DNA from: Pseudomonadota bacterium | GTDB lineage: Bacteria > Pseudomonadota > Gammaproteobacteria > Enterobacterales > Alteromonadaceae | Direction: 5' to 3' | Assembly (NCBI GenBank): GCA_051746345.1 | Contig: JBNJEZ010000009.1 | Coordinates: forward strand, 4,451-68,450 | Length of the DNA stretch: 64,000 nucleotides | In this document: piece by piece, positions 6,674 to 16,328 of the stretch | How the letters are laid out: every line of letters starts with the position of its first letter | How positions within the stretch are numbered: position 1 is the first letter of the stretch | Notes under the pieces: model-generated | Databases searched by the model: none | Seen by the model: the letters and a program-made list of their open reading frames with translations, nothing else | Told to the model about the DNA's origin: nothing | Translations under genes and position numbers: made by a program

Positions 6674-6816
6674 CGGAGGTGCTGAGAAAATTCGGCTATT
6701 GATTTGAGATTTGTGTACGAAGTCCTCCTTTTTGCTGTACCTCGTTTTGTAAGTCCAAGTAATACCTAAGTTTCTGAGCAATTGATTTTTAACATGCACT
6801 ACGAGGATATATCAGC

Positions 6817-7023
6817 ATGTCTACTACGACTGGTAAAGTAAAATTCTTTAACGAAGCGAAAGGCTTCGGTTTCATCGAGCAAGAAAATGGCGCGGACGTT
6901 TTCGTTCATTTCAGCGCTATCCAAGCAGACGGTTTCAAAACTTTGGCTGAAGGCCAGCAAGTTTCTTTCACCGTAGCACAAGGTCCTAAAGGTCCTCAGG
7001 CTGAAAACGTCGTTCCTATGTAA
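6817..7023 (+). CDS. Cold-shock protein (CspA family)
   Basis: RNP1 KGFGFI, RNP2 [15 protein letters not shown]. Confidence 0.97.
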
Positions 7024-7045
7024 GCAACGCGTTTAAAGAATTCTG

Positions 7046-7082
7046 AAAAACGCCGCTCTGGTTTCAGAGCGGCGTTTTTTTA
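7046..7082 (+). terminator. Rho-independent terminator after csp
   Basis: AAAAACGCCGCTCTG-GTTT-CAGAGCGGCGTTTTTTTT. Confidence 0.92.
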
Positions 7083-9589: not shown

Positions 9590-10039
9590 CTAGCCGAACG
9601 GTTTTAAGAGCTTATTAACATCAGCAAGAATTGCTTCTTTCATGCTAACTTCATAGCCCTCTCGTTCCTTATCCATTTCCCGTATTTTCTTTTTAGGGAA
9701 CTTTTTTCTATTTTCATGGGTAGGCATATGTTTTATTTTTTCATACATCTCATGCATTGCAGGATAGTCTTTCGAGTAATCATATTCCACCGCTTCTGGA
9801 CGGTGATCAAGGAGCACAACAATACGTAAGCAGCCTTCAGAGAAAGGGCATTGCTCTTGCTGCATCGCCTTAGCAATAGTGATGATACTCTCGTCAATAC
9901 GGTCAACCCGCTTTTGCACCGAATCCCGGCGAAGCTGATTTTGCTGTTTTAACCGACGTAATAGTTTACTAGCGTACAACGCCAGTCCAACAATAATCAG
10001 TACACCCAAAATAATTATTAATAACGTTGTTGCTGACAT
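9590..10039 (-). CDS. DUF2489-like membrane-anchored protein
   Basis: N-terminal TM, IAKAMQQEQCPFSEGCLR, HMPTH; usual neighbour of yihI. Confidence 0.75.
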   Translation of the reverse strand: MSATTLLIIILGVLIIVGLALYASKLLRRLKQQNQLRRDSVQKRVDRIDESIITIAKAMQQEQCPFSEGCLRIVVLLDHRPEAVEYDYSKDYPAMHEMYEKIKHMPTHENRKKFPKKKIREMDKEREGYEVSMKEAILADVNKLLKPFG

Positions 10040-10479
10040 TAGTACTCCTCGTCGTCCCAGTCGTCTTCTATATCAATACCGAGTTTCTCTGCTAATTGTT
10101 CATAACGCTCAGACTTTTTATCCAAATAGCGCTGTTCTTCTGCGCTCAGCTCTTCACCCTGTTCAAAACGCTCAACTAACGTCTGTAGTTTTACATCTTG
10201 CTCTAATTGCTTGAGCTCTTCAGCCGGTGACATTTCGCTTGAACTGCTCGGTTCCAACGGCGTCACTAATGGGATTTTTCGACGGCTACCTTTACGTGGG
10301 TCCTGCTTTTCGGTCGTCTGCTGTTCAGTATGTGATTTTCCACTAGAGTGACGTTGACCGGGTTGATGCCCCTTGCCTTTCTTCTTTCCTTTTACCGTTT
10401 TCTCTGATGTTTTTTCATCGCGAGGTTTTTTTCCCGGGGCTAATGGACCCGGCTTTCTAGATTTCTTTTGGCGAGTCAT
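10039..10479 (-). CDS. yihI: Der GTPase-activating protein YihI
   Basis: MTRQKKSRK, DPRKGSRRKIPL, acidic C-terminus; near engB. Confidence 0.88.
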   Translation of the reverse strand: MTRQKKSRKPGPLAPGKKPRDEKTSEKTVKGKKKGKGHQPGQRHSSGKSHTEQQTTEKQDPRKGSRRKIPLVTPLEPSSSSEMSPAEELKQLEQDVKLQTLVERFEQGEELSAEEQRYLDKKSERYEQLAEKLGIDIEDDWDDEEY

Positions 10480-10569
10480 ACTAATTCCTTATCATGTGCA
10501 ATACAGTTATTGTAACGCATTGCAGGATAATTCGTCAGTGAATGATTGATAGAGAAGGGATTAAAGCCT

Positions 10570-10602
10570 AAAAAGAAAAAAGGCGATGCATTTGCATCGC
10601 CT
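10570..10602 (-). terminator. Rho-independent terminator of the candidate ncRNA
   Basis: Minus strand AGGCGATGCA-AA-TGCATCGCCT followed by TTTTTCTTTTT. Confidence 0.88.
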
Positions 10603-10905
10603 GTCTCTCTCATATTTGGCAGCGCACTGCACCTATGAGAATGGTTGTCACTGCTTCCGAGTTTTTATAATGGTCTTCCGTAACCGGTCTTTTATTATTG
10701 TTTTTATTATATAAAAGGAGCTCCATAGCCAAAAGCATTTTCACTCCCTGGATTATCGAACACTTTTTTGTTGTTCTTAATTATCGATAATCATTCTCGA
10801 CCTCTTGTTATTTTTTTGTGTCGAGCAGTGCCGTCTTTTTAATCAACGATCTTATTATTATTTGTCTGAAGCCCTTCTTAGAAATGAAGGTTTCGCTGCA
10901 GACGC
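10574..10905 (-). ncRNA. Candidate ~330-nt structured regulatory RNA with A-rich loops (CrcZ/CsrC-like sponge or dual-function RNA)
   Basis: Own promoter and terminator, at least five stem-loops, AAN-rich loops, four GGA motifs; csrC-syntenic position upstream of yihI. Confidence 0.68.
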
Positions 10906-10910
10906 TGTAA

Positions 10911-10938
10911 AGACTACTGCAATAAGATTTTTATTCAA
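10911..10938 (-). promoter_or_regulatory. Putative sigma-70 promoter of the candidate ncRNA
   Basis: Minus strand TTGAAT (10938-10933)-N16-TAGTCT (10916-10911). Confidence 0.55.
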
Positions 10939-11037
10939 TGATTTTATTGATCTAAAAAACTCGTTTCTTATTACTTTTTGTTGTAAAAGCGTATATTTTA
11001 ATGATTTATATGCTTTTTGTTATGTTTTTTAGGTCTT

Positions 11038-11062
11038 AAAAAGGGCGGTTATAACCGCCCTT
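11038..11062 (-). terminator. Terminator after cytochrome c4 gene
   Basis: AAGGGCGGTT-AT-AACCGCCCTT followed by T run on the minus strand. Confidence 0.8.
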
Positions 11063-11078
11063 CCATGAAATCGACTTT

Positions 11079-11705
11079 TTAGTATAAGCCGTGTAAGTAT
11101 TTTGACAGTAGCTCTATTTCTTCATCGGTCATTTTTTCAGCAACTCCGCGCATCATCCCATTTGGATCATTTGCACGCTCGCCACTGCGAAACATCTCCA
11201 GCTGCGATATGACATACGCCGGATATTGTCCGGAAATGTCAGGAAACGCAGCTAACCCCATTCCGTTGCCACGAGGGCCATGGCAGCCTGCACAAGAAGG
11301 CACGTTGCTCTCTGGGTTGCCGCGCCGATATAAGTCAGCGCCTTTACTGATGACATCTTCAGCTGTCTCGCCCTTCGGCTCGTCCTGAGCGGCATAAAAC
11401 GCTGCTAAGTCAGCCATATCCTGCTCGGACAGGCTTGCTACCTGACCCATCATAACAGCGTTGTTACGGCCTTCTTCACCACCAGTTTCTGACGCGGTTT
11501 TAAAATCCATTAACTGCTTATACAGATACTTTTCGTGCTGACCAGCAAGGTGCGGGTACATATCCGTAGGCGCCTCGCCCTGAGGTCCATGACATGCGGC
11601 ACAAACTTGTGATTTATCTTTGCCTGCTTCAGGATCGCCTTGCTGGGCTAAAGCCACACCGGTTGATCCTAGAAATAATCCCAAAATAATCGCGAATTTT
11701 TTCAT
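11079..11705 (-). CDS. Diheme cytochrome c4
   Basis: Signal peptide from MKKF, two CxxCH motifs (CAACH, CAGCH); divergent from engB. Confidence 0.92.
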   Translation of the reverse strand: MKKFAIILGLFLGSTGVALAQQGDPEAGKDKSQVCAACHGPQGEAPTDMYPHLAGQHEKYLYKQLMDFKTASETGGEEGRNNAVMMGQVASLSEQDMADLAAFYAAQDEPKGETAEDVISKGADLYRRGNPESNVPSCAGCHGPRGNGMGLAAFPDISGQYPAYVISQLEMFRSGERANDPNGMMRGVAEKMTDEEIELLSKYLHGLY

Positions 11706-11904
11706 GTTTGCTTCTCTTGTATCTCTAGTGGCGAGCGTCGCCGACATACATCGCTATAAACAGTCTGCTATTTTACACAAAACTCATGTGGATTAAATGA
11801 TTAAAACACATTCAATACCGATTTGATCATTGGCTGATGGGTTGTGATCCGTCATAATGGGTACTCGAACACGCCATTCCCAACTATAGAGTGAATCTTG
11901 CACC

Positions 11905-12528
11905 GTGCCGGATAATAAACCAATTAACTACCAAACCGCTAAATTTATTACCAGCGCCCCAGATATCAGCAAGTTACCTGATGACACCGGAATTGAAATA
12001 GCATTTGCCGGACGCTCAAATGCGGGCAAATCTAGTGCGCTAAACACACTCACACGTCAAAATTCGTTAGCCCGAACCAGTAAAACTCCTGGCCGTACTC
12101 AATTAATCAATGTCTTCGAATTAGATAGTGGACAACGACTCATTGATCTACCGGGCTATGGTTTTGCTAAGGTTCCGCTGGCCGTTAAAGAAAAATGGCA
12201 GCAATCGCTATCTGAGTACCTGCAAAAAAGGGATTCCTTAAAGGGGCTCGTGGTACTTATGGATATAAGACATCCTTTTAAAGAAACGGATCAGGAGCTC
12301 ATTTATTGGGCTGTTAGCTGTGACATCCCAGTTTTAGCGTTACTGACTAAAGCAGACAAACTGAAGCAAGGGGCTCGAATGAATATGGTACTTAAAGCCC
12401 GTCAGGCTGCGATTGCTTTTAATGGCGATGTTACTGTAGAAGCTTTTTCGTCACTAAAACGGTTTGGTGTTGATGCCGTCGAAAACGTACTAAACCAGTG
12501 GTTTAACGATGACACAAACGCACAATAG
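11905..12528 (+). CDS. engB: Ribosome biogenesis GTPase YihA/EngB
   Basis: [26 protein letters not shown]. Confidence 0.97.
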
Positions 12529-13441
12529 CCCGCCTTTAAATGCCTGGTTGTTGCTCGGACTGTTAGCACTCATATGGGGCAGCTCCTTTCTATTAATAAA
12601 GAAAGGTTTAATCGCATTTGGTGCGATGGAGGTCGGTGCGTTACGGATATCATCCGCGGGACTGGTACTCGCTCCTTTAGTCGCTAAACGACTGCATCGA
12701 ATTACGGCCAAGCACTGGGCAAAACTGGCCAGTGTCGGCTTGGTCGGTAGTCTGATACCCGCATTTATGTTTGCTATCGCACAAACTCAGCTGGACAGCG
12801 GCATTACCGGAGTATTGAACGCCCTAACCCCAATTTCGACACTTGTTATTGGTGTTTTATTGTTCCACCAACAAGCAAAAGTCACCCAGATAGTGGGTGT
12901 ACTGATTGGCTTGTTCGGTACCATCTTACTAATGACAGCAGGGGCCGATGGCACTTGGACATTTAACGCCTATGCTTTATTGGTACTGGTGGCGACAGTT
13001 TGTTACGGCCTGAATTTAAACCTTATTAAACACAAAATTTCCGACCTTAGTCCGCTAACGATAACTGGAGTCTCACTCTTGATGGCCAGTATCCCGGCCA
13101 CCTTTTATTTGTTTATCGGGACTGATTTTATTCAGCAGGTTCAGCAACCTGACGCGCTACTCTCGCTAATATCAGTACTTGCGCTTGGCATTATTGGTAC
13201 AGCTGGGGCGCTGGTGATCTTCAATCATGTGGTGCAATTAACTAACACCGTATTTACCAGCTCAGTCACTTATTTAATTCCGGTGGTTGCAATGCTATTG
13301 GGAATTTTTGACGGCGAACCTTTTTGGCTTCAGCACGGCGTCGGTATGCTGGCCATTCTGGTCGGCGTTTGGTTTGCGAACCGAAAAGGAAGAAGCGGAC
13401 TTGCGGGTATCCCCAGAAAAGAAAAAAGCCCGACTCAATGA
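12509..13441 (+). CDS. DMT/EamA family transporter
   Basis: About 10 hydrophobic helices, IWGSSF, two EamA repeats. Confidence 0.88.
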
Positions 13442-13448
13442 GCCGGGC
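13422..13448 (-). terminator. Terminator for the sRNA (and probably polA)
   Basis: 9-bp stem with one G-U pair that only pairs on the minus strand, then U6. Confidence 0.85.
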
Positions 13449-13512
13449 GAAAATATAATCCAGGGAGAACAAATTCTGAAGGCTTAAGCACTAAGCTTAA
13501 TTATTGCCCTCA
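13422..13512 (-). ncRNA. Candidate sigma-E-dependent sRNA (~90 nt) at the Spot 42/ErsA locus
   Basis: Sigma-E promoter immediately upstream, internal hairpin UUAAGC/GCUUAA, CU-rich single-stranded segment, terminator GCCCGGCUC-AUU-GAGUCGGGC-U6. Confidence 0.72.
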
Positions 13513-13517
13513 CTTAC

Positions 13518-13544
13518 TCCGACCGGGGTGCTTAAAAAAAGTTC
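13518..13544 (-). promoter_or_regulatory. Sigma-E (RpoE/AlgU) promoter
   Basis: Minus strand GAACTT (13544-13539)-N16-TCGGA (13522-13518), preceded by an A9 tract. Confidence 0.8.
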
Positions 13545-13559
13545 AGGTTTTTTTTTACA

Positions 13560-16328
13560 CTAGTGAGCCTGATCCCAGTTGTCGCCCTTTCCAGCCTCTG
13601 CAACCAAGGGCACATCAAGGCTTGCAGCCTTCTCCATAACCTTAGCCAATGCCGGCATATAATCATCTAACTTGGACTCTTTAATCTCGAACACTAATTC
13701 ATCATGTACCTGCATCAACATGCGCACGTCCTGCTGGCATTGTTGCTCTTCGATCCAGCCATCAACCAAAATCATCGCGCGTTTGATAATATCCGCAGCC
13801 GTTCCTTGCATCGGCGCATTGATAGCGGCCCGTTCAGCCCCTTTGCGACGAGCGCCATTAGACGCTTTAATTTCCGGTAAAGGCAGTCGACGGCCAAACA
13901 GCGTTTTTACATATCCCTGTTTTTTGGCCCGTTCGCGGGTATCTTCCATATAATTAAGCACACCAGGGAAGCGCTCAAAATATTTATCCATATAATGCTG
14001 AGCTTCGTGACGGGGTATATCCAGTTGCCGCGCAAGACCGAATGCCGACATGCCATAAATCAATCCAAAGTTAACCGCCTTAGCGCGCCGCCGCTGCTCA
14101 TCGCTAACGTCACCAAGGGCGCATCCAAACACTTCTGCTGCGGTCGCCCGGTGAATATCCTTGCCCTCGGCAAAGGCTGTTAATAATGCTTTATCTTGCG
14201 ATAAATGGGCCATTATGCGTAATTCAATCTGGCTATAGTCAATAGCGACTATCTTATAACCAGCTTCCGGCACAAAAGCTTGCCTTACGCGGCGTCCCTC
14301 TGCCGTGCGAATCGGAATGTTTTGCAGGTTAGGCTCGGTTGATGACAGTCTCCCTGTTGCTGCTACGGCTTGCTGATAGGAGGTGTGCACTCGCCCGGTA
14401 CTCGGGTTAATCATTCTTGGCAGCTTATCGGTGTAGGTCGATTTTAGCTTAGATAAGCTACGATGCTTCAGGATAACGTCCGGCAGCGGGTAGTCGTGCG
14501 CCAGCTCATGCAATACGTCTTCGGCGGTAGACGGTGCCCCTTTAGGTGTTTTCTTTATTACTGGCAACTCAAGCTTTTCAAATAAGATTTGCTGTAGCTG
14601 TTTGGGCGACCCCAGATTAAACTCTTCGCCGGCGATATCGAATGCTTCGCGCTCATACTGAATCAGTAGATCGGCTATCTCATGGCTTTGTTTAGCGAGC
14701 ATCTCCGCATCGATTCTTACGCCATACTGTTCCATATCGGTTAATACCGGAATTAAAGGCACTTCAATGTCGGTTAAAACTGTTAATAGCTCATCACTGG
14801 TTGCTTTAACTTTTTCCCATAGAATTTCATGCAATCGCAGCGTAACGTCGGCATCTTCAGCGGCATAAGGGCCTGCCTCTTCTAATGCAACCTGATTAAA
14901 CGTTAACTGCTTAGCGCCTTTACCTGCAATATCCTGGAACTTAATCGGCTTGTGGTTCAAATACTGCAGACTTAAGGTATCCATATCATGCCTGGAGCCG
15001 ACGCTATTGAAGACATAAGAAGCCAACATTGTATCGTTTTTGATTCCGGCAAGACGAATACCGTAGCGCCGTAAAATATGAGCGTCATACTTTAGGTTTT
15101 GCCCTACTTTACCCGGCTTTTCACTCTCGAGTAATGGCGCTAATTGCTCAAGTAACCAATCCCTGGATACCTGTTCTGGCGCGTCCATGTAGTCGTGCGC
15201 GACCGGAATATAAACGCCTTCGCCAAGCTCCGTCGATAACGATACTCCGACTAACTCAGCGTCCATATAATTCAGGCTTGTTGTTTCCGTATCAAATGCG
15301 AAGTAATCAGAGTTCTTAACTTTTTGTAAGTACTCACTGACCTCACTTTCCTTAAATAGGGTTCGGTAAGCATCTCTCTCAACCGCGGTGTCGGGTTCGT
15401 TGGTTGGCTCTTCCAGCCCCAGCGCCTGATCAGTTGCAGCCCCTTTTTCAAGCAACTCTTCTAACCAGCGGCGGAATTCACAGCGGCCATACAGTTCAGC
15501 CAACTGATCATTATCAGCCGGAGTAATAGACAGCTGTTGCGGGTTAAAATCAAGCTCAACATCACACTTAATAGTCGCCAGCTCTTGCGACATAAACAGT
15601 TGCTCACGGTACTCCTCGAGCTTTTTCGGCATAGTCTTCGCACCTCTAAAGTTCAGCGAAGCTACTGCATCGACGTCGTCATAAATGGCTTCAATCGAAG
15701 GAATGCCTTGTAGTAGTGCTTGAGCCGTTTTGTTACCAACTTTTGGCAAACCAGGAATGTTGTCCGAGCTATCTCCCATTAGTGCCAGATAATCAATAAT
15801 TTGATCAGGGCTAACTCCAAACTTCTCTTTGACGCCTTCTTCGTCCAGCAAAGTATCGGTCATCGTGTTGATCAGCATAACGTGTTCATTGACCAGCTGC
15901 GCCATATCCTTGTCGCCGGTACTAATCAACGTAAAGCGCCCTTCCTGACCCGCTTGTGTTGCTAAGGTACCAATAACATCGTCTGCCTCTACTCCGTCAA
16001 TGCATAACAGCGGTAACCCCATTGCTTTGACAATTTCATGTAAAGGCTCAATTTGAGTTCTTAAGTCATCCGGCATTGGCGGACGGTTTGCTTTATAATC
16101 CGCGTAAATATCACTCCGAAAAGTTTTACCTTTCGCATCAAAAACCACCGCCATATTTTCGGGTTTATAGCGTTTTAGCAGGCTACGGAGCATGTTTACA
16201 ACGCCGTAAATAGCGCCCGTTGGCTCTCCCTTAGAGTTTGTTAGATGAGGAGGAGCATGGAATGCGCGAAACAAATACGAGGAGCCATCCACTAAAATGA
16301 ACGGGTTCTCCGATACACTTTTGGTCAT
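13560..16328 (-). CDS. polA: DNA polymerase I
   Basis: 5'-3' exonuclease (LVDGSS, EADD), 3'-5' exonuclease (FDTET), polymerase motifs DYSQIELR, KAVNFGLIYG, QVHDEL. Confidence 0.99.
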   Translation of the reverse strand: MTKSVSENPFILVDGSSYLFRAFHAPPHLTNSKGEPTGAIYGVVNMLRSLLKRYKPENMAVVFDAKGKTFRSDIYADYKANRPPMPDDLRTQIEPLHEIVKAMGLPLLCIDGVEADDVIGTLATQAGQEGRFTLISTGDKDMAQLVNEHVMLINTMTDTLLDEEGVKEKFGVSPDQIIDYLALMGDSSDNIPGLPKVGNKTAQALLQGIPSIEAIYDDVDAVASLNFRGAKTMPKKLEEYREQLFMSQELATIKCDVELDFNPQQLSITPADNDQLAELYGRCEFRRWLEELLEKGAATDQALGLEEPTNEPDTAVERDAYRTLFKESEVSEYLQKVKNSDYFAFDTETTSLNYMDAELVGVSLSTELGEGVYIPVAHDYMDAPEQVSRDWLLEQLAPLLESEKPGKVGQNLKYDAHILRRYGIRLAGIKNDTMLASYVFNSVGSRHDMDTLSLQYLNHKPIKFQDIAGKGAKQLTFNQVALEEAGPYAAEDADVTLRLHEILWEKVKATSDELLTVLTDIEVPLIPVLTDMEQYGVRIDAEMLAKQSHEIADLLIQYEREAFDIAGEEFNLGSPKQLQQILFEKLELPVIKKTPKGAPSTAEDVLHELAHDYPLPDVILKHRSLSKLKSTYTDKLPRMINPSTGRVHTSYQQAVAATGRLSSTEPNLQNIPIRTAEGRRVRQAFVPEAGYKIVAIDYSQIELRIMAHLSQDKALLTAFAEGKDIHRATAAEVFGCALGDVSDEQRRRAKAVNFGLIYGMSAFGLARQLDIPRHEAQHYMDKYFERFPGVLNYMEDTRERAKKQGYVKTLFGRRLPLPEIKASNGARRKGAERAAINAPMQGTAADIIKRAMILVDGWIEEQQCQQDVRMLMQVHDELVFEIKESKLDDYMPALAKVMEKAASLDVPLVAEAGKGDNWDQAH

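Follow-up and report, generated by a model that had tools for sequence, protein, structure and literature searches.

Two predicted RNA genes beside polA and yihI

The window analysed here (the whole stretch of 64,000 nucleotides) comes from a genome that is, judged by its sequence, an Idiomarina close to I. seosinensis. It carries two separate RNA genes on the minus strand, with 2.7 kb between them. The promoter of the smaller one begins 16 nt past the stop codon of polA, and a gene for an EamA transporter, which is convergent to the small RNA, lies between it and engB. The longer one is located between the gene for cytochrome c4 and yihI, just ahead of yihI and in its orientation, which is the position of csrC. 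Hfq and CsrA are both encoded in the genome. An earlier note on this DNA knew of no described module of an sRNA and a sponge or target at the polA-engB-yihI locus. The locus itself has been described, with ErsA in the polA-engB gap (PMC8575079) and csrC near yihA/yihI (PMC1488887). For Idiomarina itself, we found nothing relevant on small RNAs in the literature, and no expression or interactome data. The relatives compared were 28 Idiomarina genomes, a set of 31 genomes that consists of Idiomarina and the sister genus g52, and a third genus, g35; all of these are related, so they are not independent samples.

The small RNA is a predicted sigma-E-type sRNA of ∼92 nt (13,421–13,512, minus strand), with its 5′ end placed from the promoter; its length in relatives is 77–94 nt. 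It is present in 28/28 Idiomarina genomes and at the 3′ end of polA in four further genera, and the position next to polA holds in genera g1, g52, g35, g36 and g75. The −35 element of its promoter, GAACTT (13,539–13,544, minus strand), is invariant in 27 Idiomarina genomes and is also found in the remaining one, G016. TCNNA comes after it at a constant distance of 16 nt, and GAACTT-N16-TCNNA as a whole is invariant across the 28 Idiomarina genomes. The −10 element reads TCGGA here (13,518–13,522, minus strand), and its TC and final A are conserved in the variants TCACA, TCAGA, TCTGA and TCGTA. Moreover, the rpoE-like gene of the same genome carries GAACTT-N16-TCACA. The promoter of the sRNA matches it, which supports the earlier suggestion that this promoter is of the sigma-E type.

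The 5′ stem-loop of the sRNA (13,477–13,513, minus strand) shows compensatory changes (GAGGG/CCCUC, GAAGGC/GCCUUC, GAGAGC/GCUCUC), and 98.8% of its cells are paired, a value reached by none of 500 shuffles. The single-stranded seed GUUCUCCCUGGAU (13,458–13,470, minus strand) is identical in 27 genomes and has one 2-nt insertion in G016. Its opening energy is predicted to be as low as 1.2–4.7 kcal/mol (about 1–5), which agrees with its earlier description as unpaired. The intrinsic terminator (13,422–13,448, minus strand), a 9-bp stem with a U run, overlaps the 3′ end of the EamA gene; it covaries, with GC, GU and AU at two pairs, and the plus strand has no U run.

The second RNA is long, A-rich and non-coding, with a length of ∼330 nt (10,573–10,905, minus strand), and its identity across the full length is 74–93% in the 28 genomes. 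The promoter, TTGAAT-N16-TAGTCT (10,911–10,938, minus strand), is kept in the 28 Idiomarina genomes and in genera g52 and g35. Its −35 element is overlapped by a palindrome, TCAAT-N6-ATTGA (10,935–10,950, minus strand), which is conserved in the three genera. The palindrome was rejected as a Fur box: only 12/19 positions fit, and 139 sites in the genome match at 14 positions or more. We found no sigma-54 consensus at this promoter, and no GacA/UvrY box (TGTRAG-N6-CTYACA, with up to three mismatches allowed) in the promoter region 10,911–11,000.

The long RNA is indeed as rich in A as had been noted. It has four runs of at least four ARN triplets (12–21 nt each), and its ARN density is in the top 0.05% of genome windows. 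The first tract, AAUAAUAAUAAG, lies at 10,851–10,862 on the minus strand, as do all elements of this RNA. The second (10,801–10,815) is in the loop of hairpin H2 (CUCGAC/GUCGAG, 10,796–10,825), which covaries at 3/6 pairs and whose loop sequence, ACAAAAAAAUAACAA, is nearly invariant. The third (10,764–10,778) is in the loop of hairpin H3 (10,751–10,792), where GAUUAUCGA (10,792–10,784) pairs with UCGAUAAUC (10,759–10,751). At each position of H3, 17–22 of 22 sequences pair; compensatory variants occur, and in one clade the register is shifted. The fourth tract (10,688–10,708) consists of seven consecutive ARN triplets and is kept as AAUAAUAACAAUAAUAAA in most species.

A small hairpin, GGUUACGGAAGACC (10,672–10,685), is nearly invariant and holds a GGA in its loop, making it a possible CsrA-type site; equivalent GGA motifs were found in g52 and g35. 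Altogether, the 336 nt contain four GGA motifs, three of them conserved, and the composition predicts about four. Elsewhere in the genome, the candidates for a canonical Csr RNA rich in GGA proved to be only coding regions and two TwoAYGGAY-like elements, and no Rfam family, CsrB, CsrC and CrcZ (RF01675) included, matched at the long-RNA locus. The gene ends in an intrinsic terminator (10,573–10,602), downstream of which yihI has its own conserved promoter.

The earlier note had read both RNAs on the minus strand. The conserved promoters, the one-way terminators and the predicted helices, with 39 G.U cells vs 4 A.C cells, point the same way, and both RNAs look like real, genus-conserved minus-strand genes.

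A complementarity shared by the two RNAs

On the plus strand, CTCCCTGGATTAT is located at 10,744–10,756 and ATAATCCAGGGAG at 13,455–13,467, exactly as first reported. On the minus strand, therefore, the sRNA carries CUCCCUGGAUUAU (13,455–13,467) and the long RNA carries the pairing site AUAAUCCAGGGAG (10,744–10,756), with the conserved core AUCCAGGGAG at 10,753–10,744. In the target sense, the 13-mer occurs only twice in the 2.35-Mb genome, once within the long RNA and once opposite the sRNA gene as its antisense, where ∼0.07 occurrences are expected. A perfect 13-mer proves little by itself, because ∼25 others that are complementary to parts of the 336-nt RNA exist genome-wide, which is the chance expectation. 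The match is notable only because it falls within the ∼25-nt unpaired seed of a neighbouring sRNA; the chance of a match in that seed is estimated at ∼1e-4, before allowing for the other pairs that a reader could have compared. By hybridisation energy alone, the site ranks ∼12th genome-wide in a filtered sliding duplex scan, mostly behind sites in coding regions. The chance estimate given in the earlier note was 4e-4.

The core of the site is 98.6% identical in the 28 Idiomarina genomes vs 79% for the whole long RNA. The core is kept above its flanks and in two genera; of the full 13-mer, only 10/13 bases are conserved. In 31/31 genomes of Idiomarina and g52, the seed finds its best partner in the homologous site, with a duplex of 10–13 bp, and in Idiomarina the observed duplex energy was reached by only 0–6 of 200 shuffles. 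Site variants in three genomes (G001, G013 and G021) pair through G.U; all three are A→G substitutions opposite U, so the pairing is kept, and G019 loses one base. In G021 the flanks differ on both RNAs, yet 13 bp are kept. True covariation is almost absent from the core, since the seed does not vary within Idiomarina, and each of the two motifs could be conserved for a reason of its own.

In the sister genus g52, the duplex has 10–11 bp at a site that is predicted to be unpaired and hence accessible, with a net energy of about −13 kcal/mol; the last G of the site is changed to A there without a matching change in the sRNA. In g35 both RNAs are present, and their pairing is no better than that of shuffles. 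One g35 genome (G061) shows a possible compensatory change from G-C to A-U, on which we do not rely because the pairing in g35 is not above shuffles.

How accessible the site is in Idiomarina was assessed by seed-only duplexes together with opening energies; co-folding the full-length RNAs gave meaningless long duplexes, because the internal structure is ignored. The site spans the junction of helices H3 and H4, and the 3′ strand of H3 overlaps its 5′ half. The 9-bp stem that the earlier note had placed beside an exposed toehold is real and covaries, but it covers AUAAUC, and the GGAG is predicted to be paired rather than exposed. Its predicted partner is a CUCC further downstream, so that opening the site would cost 6–16 kcal/mol in Idiomarina. 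The site is thus largely base-paired in the predictions, and the net pairing energy is about 0 to −10 kcal/mol. The segment AAUCCAGGGAG stays fixed where H3 changes its sequence or register (G016 and the G011 clade).

A candidate decoy for a predicted envelope-stress sRNA

What the sRNA may regulate is suggested by its start-proximal seed matches. Among the 157 matches in this genome, genes for TonB-dependent receptors rank 1, 7, 8, 11 and 35, and the genome has only 19 such receptors. Throughout the genus, one of the receptor orthologues retains UUCCAGGGAG directly preceded by an A-rich tract. The site on the long RNA resembles the ribosome-binding sites of the receptors that are matched by the seed.

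The conserved complementarity of 10–13 bases makes it probable that the long RNA is either a decoy for the sRNA or one of its targets. We argue, with a confidence that is about evenly balanced, for Hfq-assisted pairing in which the long RNA serves as a sponge or decoy. Under envelope stress, sigma-E would drive the transcription of the ∼92-nt sRNA from the promoter behind polA. The unpaired anti-Shine-Dalgarno seed would pair with the ribosome-binding sites of TonB-dependent receptor mRNAs, resulting in less synthesis of outer-membrane proteins, and the rpoE leader is perhaps another partner. With its ARN tracts, the ∼330-nt RNA is predicted to occupy the distal face of Hfq, and it would present a copy of the target site, AAUCCAGGGAG, between two hairpins. 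On Hfq, the seed could anneal to this copy over 10–13 bp, and the long RNA would then act as a decoy that buffers the sRNA or sets a threshold. Once paired, the long RNA may also become prone to decay.

It is also conceivable, though we regard it as rather unlikely, that the complementarity is a by-product, and that CCAGGGAG of the long RNA and the seed of the sRNA are each conserved independently in RNAs that never meet productively. CCAGGGAG would then be an SD-like GGA site for CsrA or ribosomes and a part of the H3/H4 helices. The seed would be kept for its mRNA targets; anti-Shine-Dalgarno seeds in general match a site of this type over 6–7 bases, and the rest would be due to chance or shared descent, but the conserved match is 10–13 bp. 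The position of the site at a junction of two helices, which is costly to open in Idiomarina, is consistent with such a by-product; against this, the site in g52 is predicted to be unpaired, and AAUCCAGGGAG remains fixed in spite of the changes of H3 in G016 and the G011 clade. A role in binding CsrA would fit the csrC position, the other conserved GGA motifs in hairpin loops and the presence of a CsrA gene, but GGA is not enriched, with four motifs in 336 nt. Sigma-E-type sRNAs with (U/C)UCCCUGG seeds are found in many genera without the long RNA (g36, at least, has the sRNA and no long RNA before yihI), the two RNAs of g35 have no significant pairing, and ∼25 chance 13-mers elsewhere in the genome are complementary to the long RNA. 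All of these would be expected of a by-product, whereas the retention of 13 bp in G021, with flanks changed on both RNAs, would not.

If the two RNAs do pair, the control could run in the reverse direction, which we consider improbable. The stress-induced sRNA would trigger the decay or refolding of a long RNA that titrates Hfq, and perhaps CsrA, in the manner of CrcZ or CsrC, and Hfq would thereby become available to the envelope-stress response. The four ARN runs may be compared with the six A-rich stretches of CrcZ, the pairing must open H3 and H4 and would amount to a remodelling of the long RNA, and the latter stands alone with its own conserved promoter and upstream palindrome. However, one pairing site per 330 nt fits both directions, and sRNA-triggered control of CrcZ-type RNAs is not described in the literature cited here.

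That the long transcript is an mRNA for a 42-residue peptide with its Shine-Dalgarno sequence masked by the sRNA, or a leader or attenuator of yihI, is highly improbable: AGGGAG-N5-ATG, with the pairing site as the Shine-Dalgarno sequence, does open a frame of 42 codons that ends just before the terminator in this genome, and yihI follows the RNA directly in the same orientation, but the frame is missing even in the 93%-identical G002, no ORF is conserved in the long RNA (14/31 homologues are without any ORF of 20 codons), and a strong intrinsic terminator is followed by the separately conserved promoter of yihI.

Relation to known regulatory RNAs

The closest counterpart of the small RNA is ErsA of P. 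aeruginosa (Rfam Pseudomon-1), a sigma-22-dependent sRNA in the polA-engB gap. The seed of ErsA is an unstructured stretch flanked by a 5′ hairpin and the terminator, and with Hfq this sRNA represses the porin gene oprD (PMC8575079). Like ErsA, the Idiomarina sRNA adjoins polA in the polA-engB region, has a promoter for an envelope-stress sigma factor (sigma-22 there, predicted sigma-E-type here), holds its seed in the corresponding place and has predicted outer-membrane targets, which are TonB-dependent receptors in our case. Unlike ErsA, it is shorter (77–94 nt), does not match the family model and has the EamA gene before engB. A sponge of ErsA is not described in the literature cited here. 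The same slot after polA is occupied by Spot 42 (spf), but the promoter of our sRNA is sigma-E-like, and in a search of all Rfam 15 families with E up to 10 neither Spot_42 nor Pseudomon-1/ErsA matched.

In that search, the best match of the sRNA was anti-hemB (RF02837) with 31.1 bits and an E-value of 1.5e-4, which is under the cut-off of 49.5 bits; the other matches with E up to 10 were weak and to anti-hemB and mmgR only. With anti-hemB/ncS04 and mmgR, the sRNA shares an anti-Shine-Dalgarno motif of the CUCCCU type with a terminator behind it, but its motif is located in a linker and not in a defined hairpin loop. The sRNA may be a distant relative of anti-hemB and is no member by the Rfam criterion.

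Most of the sponges known so far arise as by-products when tRNAs or mRNAs are processed; the best-studied ones are either short pieces of tRNA or mRNA precursors or the products of prophage genes. The candidate described here differs from the best-studied sponges in that it is a stand-alone 330-nt gene of the core genome that has a conserved promoter to itself and contains several ARN tracts as well as further invariant blocks. It resembles sponges in joining ARN tracts with a seed-complementary site, and the complementarity is found in 31/31 genomes of two genera, but not in g35. SroC and AgvB are Hfq-dependent sponges of GcvB, where the annealing of the seed via Hfq sequesters the sRNA (PMC4474525). 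A sponge of a sigma-E sRNA is also known: 3′ETS-leuZ, with single-stranded ARN repeats, anneals on Hfq to the seed of RybB (bioRxiv 10.1101/2021.04.25.441314). From its sequence, the system in Idiomarina is predicted to add a new case to a type of RNA cross-talk that is already known.

If the pairing is real, Idiomarina would have a compact circuit in which an envelope-stress sRNA shuts down TonB-dependent receptors and is itself buffered by a dedicated, conserved, Hfq-binding RNA. A stand-alone decoy of 330 nt would imply that dedicated decoy genes exist beyond the model enterobacteria. In addition, the gene order known from ErsA, with a sigma-E sRNA next to polA, would be extended to Alteromonadaceae, and this class of sRNA would gain a predicted regulon.

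CrcZ, with 407 nt and six A-rich stretches, binds the distal face of Hfq (PMC4063720). The long RNA is similar in size (∼330 nt) and has several ARN stretches that would be able to fill this face, but it does not match the CrcZ model, has no sigma-54/CbrB-type promoter and is found at another locus. CrcZ acts by binding and titrating Hfq, and pairing with the seed of an sRNA is not described for it (PMC4063720).

The position of the long RNA points to CsrC, since csrC is always found near yihA and yihI (PMC1488887). Like CsrC of E. coli and Salmonella, which is also predicted in some Vibrionaceae, it lies upstream of yihI near engB (yihA) in the same orientation and has a few conserved GGA motifs in loops. 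Unlike CsrC, it is A-rich, has GGA at chance level, and lacks both a match to the CsrB/CsrC models and a GacA/UvrY box. We can imagine, as a speculation that we do not think likely, that the long RNA descends from CsrC and has been rebuilt as a CrcZ-like titrator of Hfq, tied to envelope stress by base pairing. The sigma-E-induced, ErsA-like sRNA would invade H3 and H4 of the long RNA; the invasion would either destroy the long RNA and free Hfq for the stress regulon, or the long RNA would restrain the sRNA. Were this true, a protein sponge and an sRNA sponge would be combined in one molecule, linking the availability of Hfq to outer-membrane homeostasis, and the locus would show a possible fate of csrC after the loss of its GGA sites. 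The most conserved block of the long RNA, CAGUGACAACCAUUCUCAUAG (10,633–10,653, minus strand), has exact matches in 20 metagenome contigs, in a scan that returned genomic contigs only.

Predicted pairing of the seed and its site

The host organism is an Idiomarina; comparing its cytochrome c4 with the I. seosinensis CL-SP19 protein gives 96% identity. Between polA (13560-16328, minus strand) and yihI (10039-10479, minus strand) lie an EamA transporter gene (12509-13441, plus strand), 118 nt from polA, engB (11905-12528, plus strand) and the dihaem cytochrome c4 gene (11079-11747, minus strand), 599 nt from yihI. A predicted sigma-E-type small RNA of ~92 nt (13421-13512, minus strand) follows polA, and an A-rich long RNA (roughly 10905 to 10573, minus strand) lies upstream of yihI. 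The earlier note reported a perfect 13-nt complementarity between the two, and both sequences are where it placed them: CTCCCTGGATTAT at 10744-10756 (plus strand) and its exact reverse complement at 13455-13467. In minus-strand sense this gives CUCCCUGGAUUAU for the element that follows polA and AUAAUCCAGGGAG for the long intergenic one. The target-sense 13-mer occurs in two places only in the 2.35-Mb assembly, the long RNA and the antisense of the small-RNA gene, with ~0.07 occurrences expected. A perfect 13-mer alone is weak evidence, since ~25 other genomic 13-mers are complementary to parts of the 336-nt RNA, matching the chance prediction; by raw duplex energy the site is about 12th genome-wide. 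The case for pairing depends on the position and conservation of the match.

That the 13-mer is conserved above its flanks held for a 10-nt core, AUCCAGGGAG, and failed for the three 5' bases, whose conservation is only average. Across Idiomarina the core reaches 98.6% identity and the long RNA overall 79%; only 17 of the 320 ten-base windows of the long RNA match its conservation. In 31/31 genomes (28 Idiomarina and three of the sister genus g52) the homologous site gives the best duplex between seed linker and long RNA, with 10-13 contiguous bp and -19 to -27 kcal/mol; in one of them (G019) a site base is lost and the duplex has 11 bp, counting one G.U. Only 0-6 of 200 shuffles equal the observed duplex in Idiomarina. 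Each of the three core substitutions replaces A by G where the partner base is U. The only clear change on both sides is in G021, the most divergent species, whose flanks differ in both RNAs (GGAUGUU with AAUGUCC) and whose duplex still has 13 bp.

H3 (10751-10792), a real, covarying hairpin of the long RNA, takes up the 5' half of the site with its 3' strand, and the GGAG of the site is predicted to be able to pair with a downstream CUCC. Because these structures occupy the site, it is costly to open in Idiomarina (predicted 6-16 kcal/mol), so that a net energy of roughly 0 to -10 kcal/mol remains. The predicted cost of opening the seed is 1-5 kcal/mol. In g52 the site is predicted to be open, with a net energy of about -13 kcal/mol; its final G has become A without a matching change in the small RNA. 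Since a third genus, g35, gave no pairing of the two RNAs better than shuffles, the pairing relationship, if real, would be confined to the lineage of Idiomarina and g52.

We consider Hfq-assisted pairing, with the long RNA as a decoy, to be the best reading of these data, with about an even chance of being right. A less probable explanation, still to be taken seriously, is that the match is a by-product of separate constraints, one on an anti-Shine-Dalgarno seed and the other on a Shine-Dalgarno-like motif that serves CsrA or the structure of the long RNA. The genome encodes both Hfq and CsrA, and the GGA content of the long RNA is at chance level.

In one clade (long-RNA homologues of G011, G013, G018 and G027; loci L055, L050, L052 and L054) the 5' strand of H3 is CUGGAUUUC, a copy of CUGGAUU of the small RNA. 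It pairs with the (G/A)AUCCAG in the site and is a built-in competitor of the small RNA for those bases. A second element resembling the small RNA lies 3' of a stop codon on another contig of the host genome (C1:253690-253810, plus strand; L253:790-910). It consists of a hairpin, AAUCCA-CUCCC-UGGAUU, and a strong terminator, and 14 nt of its CACUCCCUGGAUUA are complementary to the long-RNA site. Of the 28 Idiomarina genomes only four, the I. seosinensis / I. aquatica group, were found to have it, and its weak Rfam matches, to mmgR and anti-hemB, are those of the small RNA.

The long RNA as a candidate decoy

The long RNA is 74-93% identical end to end among 28 genomes. Its promoter, TTGAAT-N16-TAGTCT, is conserved with a palindrome upstream; several of its hairpins covary, and its terminator is strong and one-way. 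Its predicted helices contain 39 G.U and four A.C cells, which fixes its strand. It is also found in g52 (model R2), and in g35 its counterpart is longer and has diverged further. With four runs of four or more ARN triplets, some within hairpin loops, the long RNA ranks among the most ARN-rich 0.05% of genome windows. CrcZ binds the Hfq distal face through A-rich stretches of this type (PMC4063720), and the sponges AgvB and 3'ETS-leuZ also have the feature (bioRxiv 10.1101/2021.04.25.441314). The long RNA shares the position of csrC in enterobacteria (PMC1488887); it did not match the CsrB, CsrC or CrcZ models, and neither a GacA box nor a sigma-54 site was found at its promoter.

In the decoy reading, Hfq would hold the long RNA via the ARN tracts and the small RNA via its U tail, and the seed would anneal to a site that mimics the ribosome-binding sites of receptor mRNAs. 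Known counterparts exist for every part: the small RNA resembles ErsA, the long RNA resembles csrC in its position and CrcZ in its design, and 3'ETS-leuZ is a sponge of the sigma-E sRNA RybB. The membership tests for curated families placed neither RNA. The predicted difference lies in the candidate decoy, a dedicated and conserved gene of 330 nt that contains several Hfq-type tracts along with further invariant blocks.

It is also conceivable, though unlikely, that the pairing is real and runs the other way, with the small RNA controlling a long RNA that titrates Hfq; the direction of regulation is beyond decision from sequence data. That the long transcript serves as a small mRNA or as the leader of yihI is very improbable. 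The 42-codon frame of this genome is missing even in the 93%-identical relative and an ORF of 20 codons is absent from 14/31 homologues, which marks the RNA as non-coding, and a conserved yihI promoter (CTGACG-N18-TACAAT, 10509-10538, minus strand) downstream of the long-RNA terminator makes the two separate transcription units.

Conservation in the long RNA peaks at CAGUGACAACCAUUCUCAUAG (10633-10653, minus strand). Part of this block forms a pre-terminator stem, but its invariance exceeds the needs of that stem. Elsewhere in the host genome (C7:30650-30900 and C22:13680-13900; L127 and L128), two elements that resemble each other and contain many GGA hairpins (GGCCAU-GGA-UGGCC, CACAC-GGA-UGUG) match the TwoAYGGAY RNA model below threshold (35.6 bits vs 43) and adjoin inverted copies; possibly they are RNAs that bind CsrA, or members of a repeat family.

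The small RNA, sigma-E and predicted targets

The small RNA was found in 28/28 Idiomarina species genomes searched. Its promoter, made up of GAACTT, a 16-nt spacer and TCNNA, begins 16 nt past the polA stop. Its 5' hairpin varies in length with compensatory changes, its linker GUUCUCCCUGGAU (seed at 13458-13470) is invariant, and its terminator also covaries, with 98.8% of cells paired and 0/500 shuffles as good. Rfam gave only sub-threshold matches, to the anti-Shine-Dalgarno sRNAs mmgR and anti-hemB (31 bits for the latter, against a 49.5-bit cut-off); the sole match above gathering score in the window is a cspA thermoregulator 5' UTR at 6677-7079 (plus strand, 107 bits). A covariance model of the small RNA detected sigma-E-type sRNAs with (U/C)UCCCUGG seeds in 70/151 genomes of the family, and those of five genera are located at the polA 3' end. 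ErsA of Pseudomonas lies in the polA-engB gap, depends on sigma-22 and represses the porin OprD (PMC8575079); the small RNA shares this position and, as read from its promoter, probably the regulation.

The rpoE-like ECF sigma gene of the host (C6:104850-104950, minus strand; L141) has the same GAACTT-N16-TCACA 91 nt 5' of its start, as would be expected of an autoregulated sigma-E promoter. The leader of this gene, AGGGAGAAC, has a 9-nt match to the seed, which makes negative feedback of the small RNA on sigma-E synthesis possible. Among 157 genes with a start-proximal seed match of at least 7 nt, TonB-dependent receptors (19 in the genome) take ranks 1, 7, 8, 11 and 35, an enrichment that is indicative and not exact, as the receptor paralogues share kinship. 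One receptor leader has, genus-wide, an A-rich tract followed by UUCCAGGGAG, 11 nt and AUG; the only variants, UUCCGGGGAG and UACCAGGGAG, keep most of the pairing. The receptor mRNAs and the rpoE-like leader are predicted targets of the small RNA.

In other genera of the family, tandem units resembling the small RNA, with UCCCU-type seeds and terminators, were seen at L079 (G188) and L084 (G131); one of these genomes contains as many as 10 matches in a 25-kb stretch, and in another four adjacent copies bear sigma-E-type promoters.
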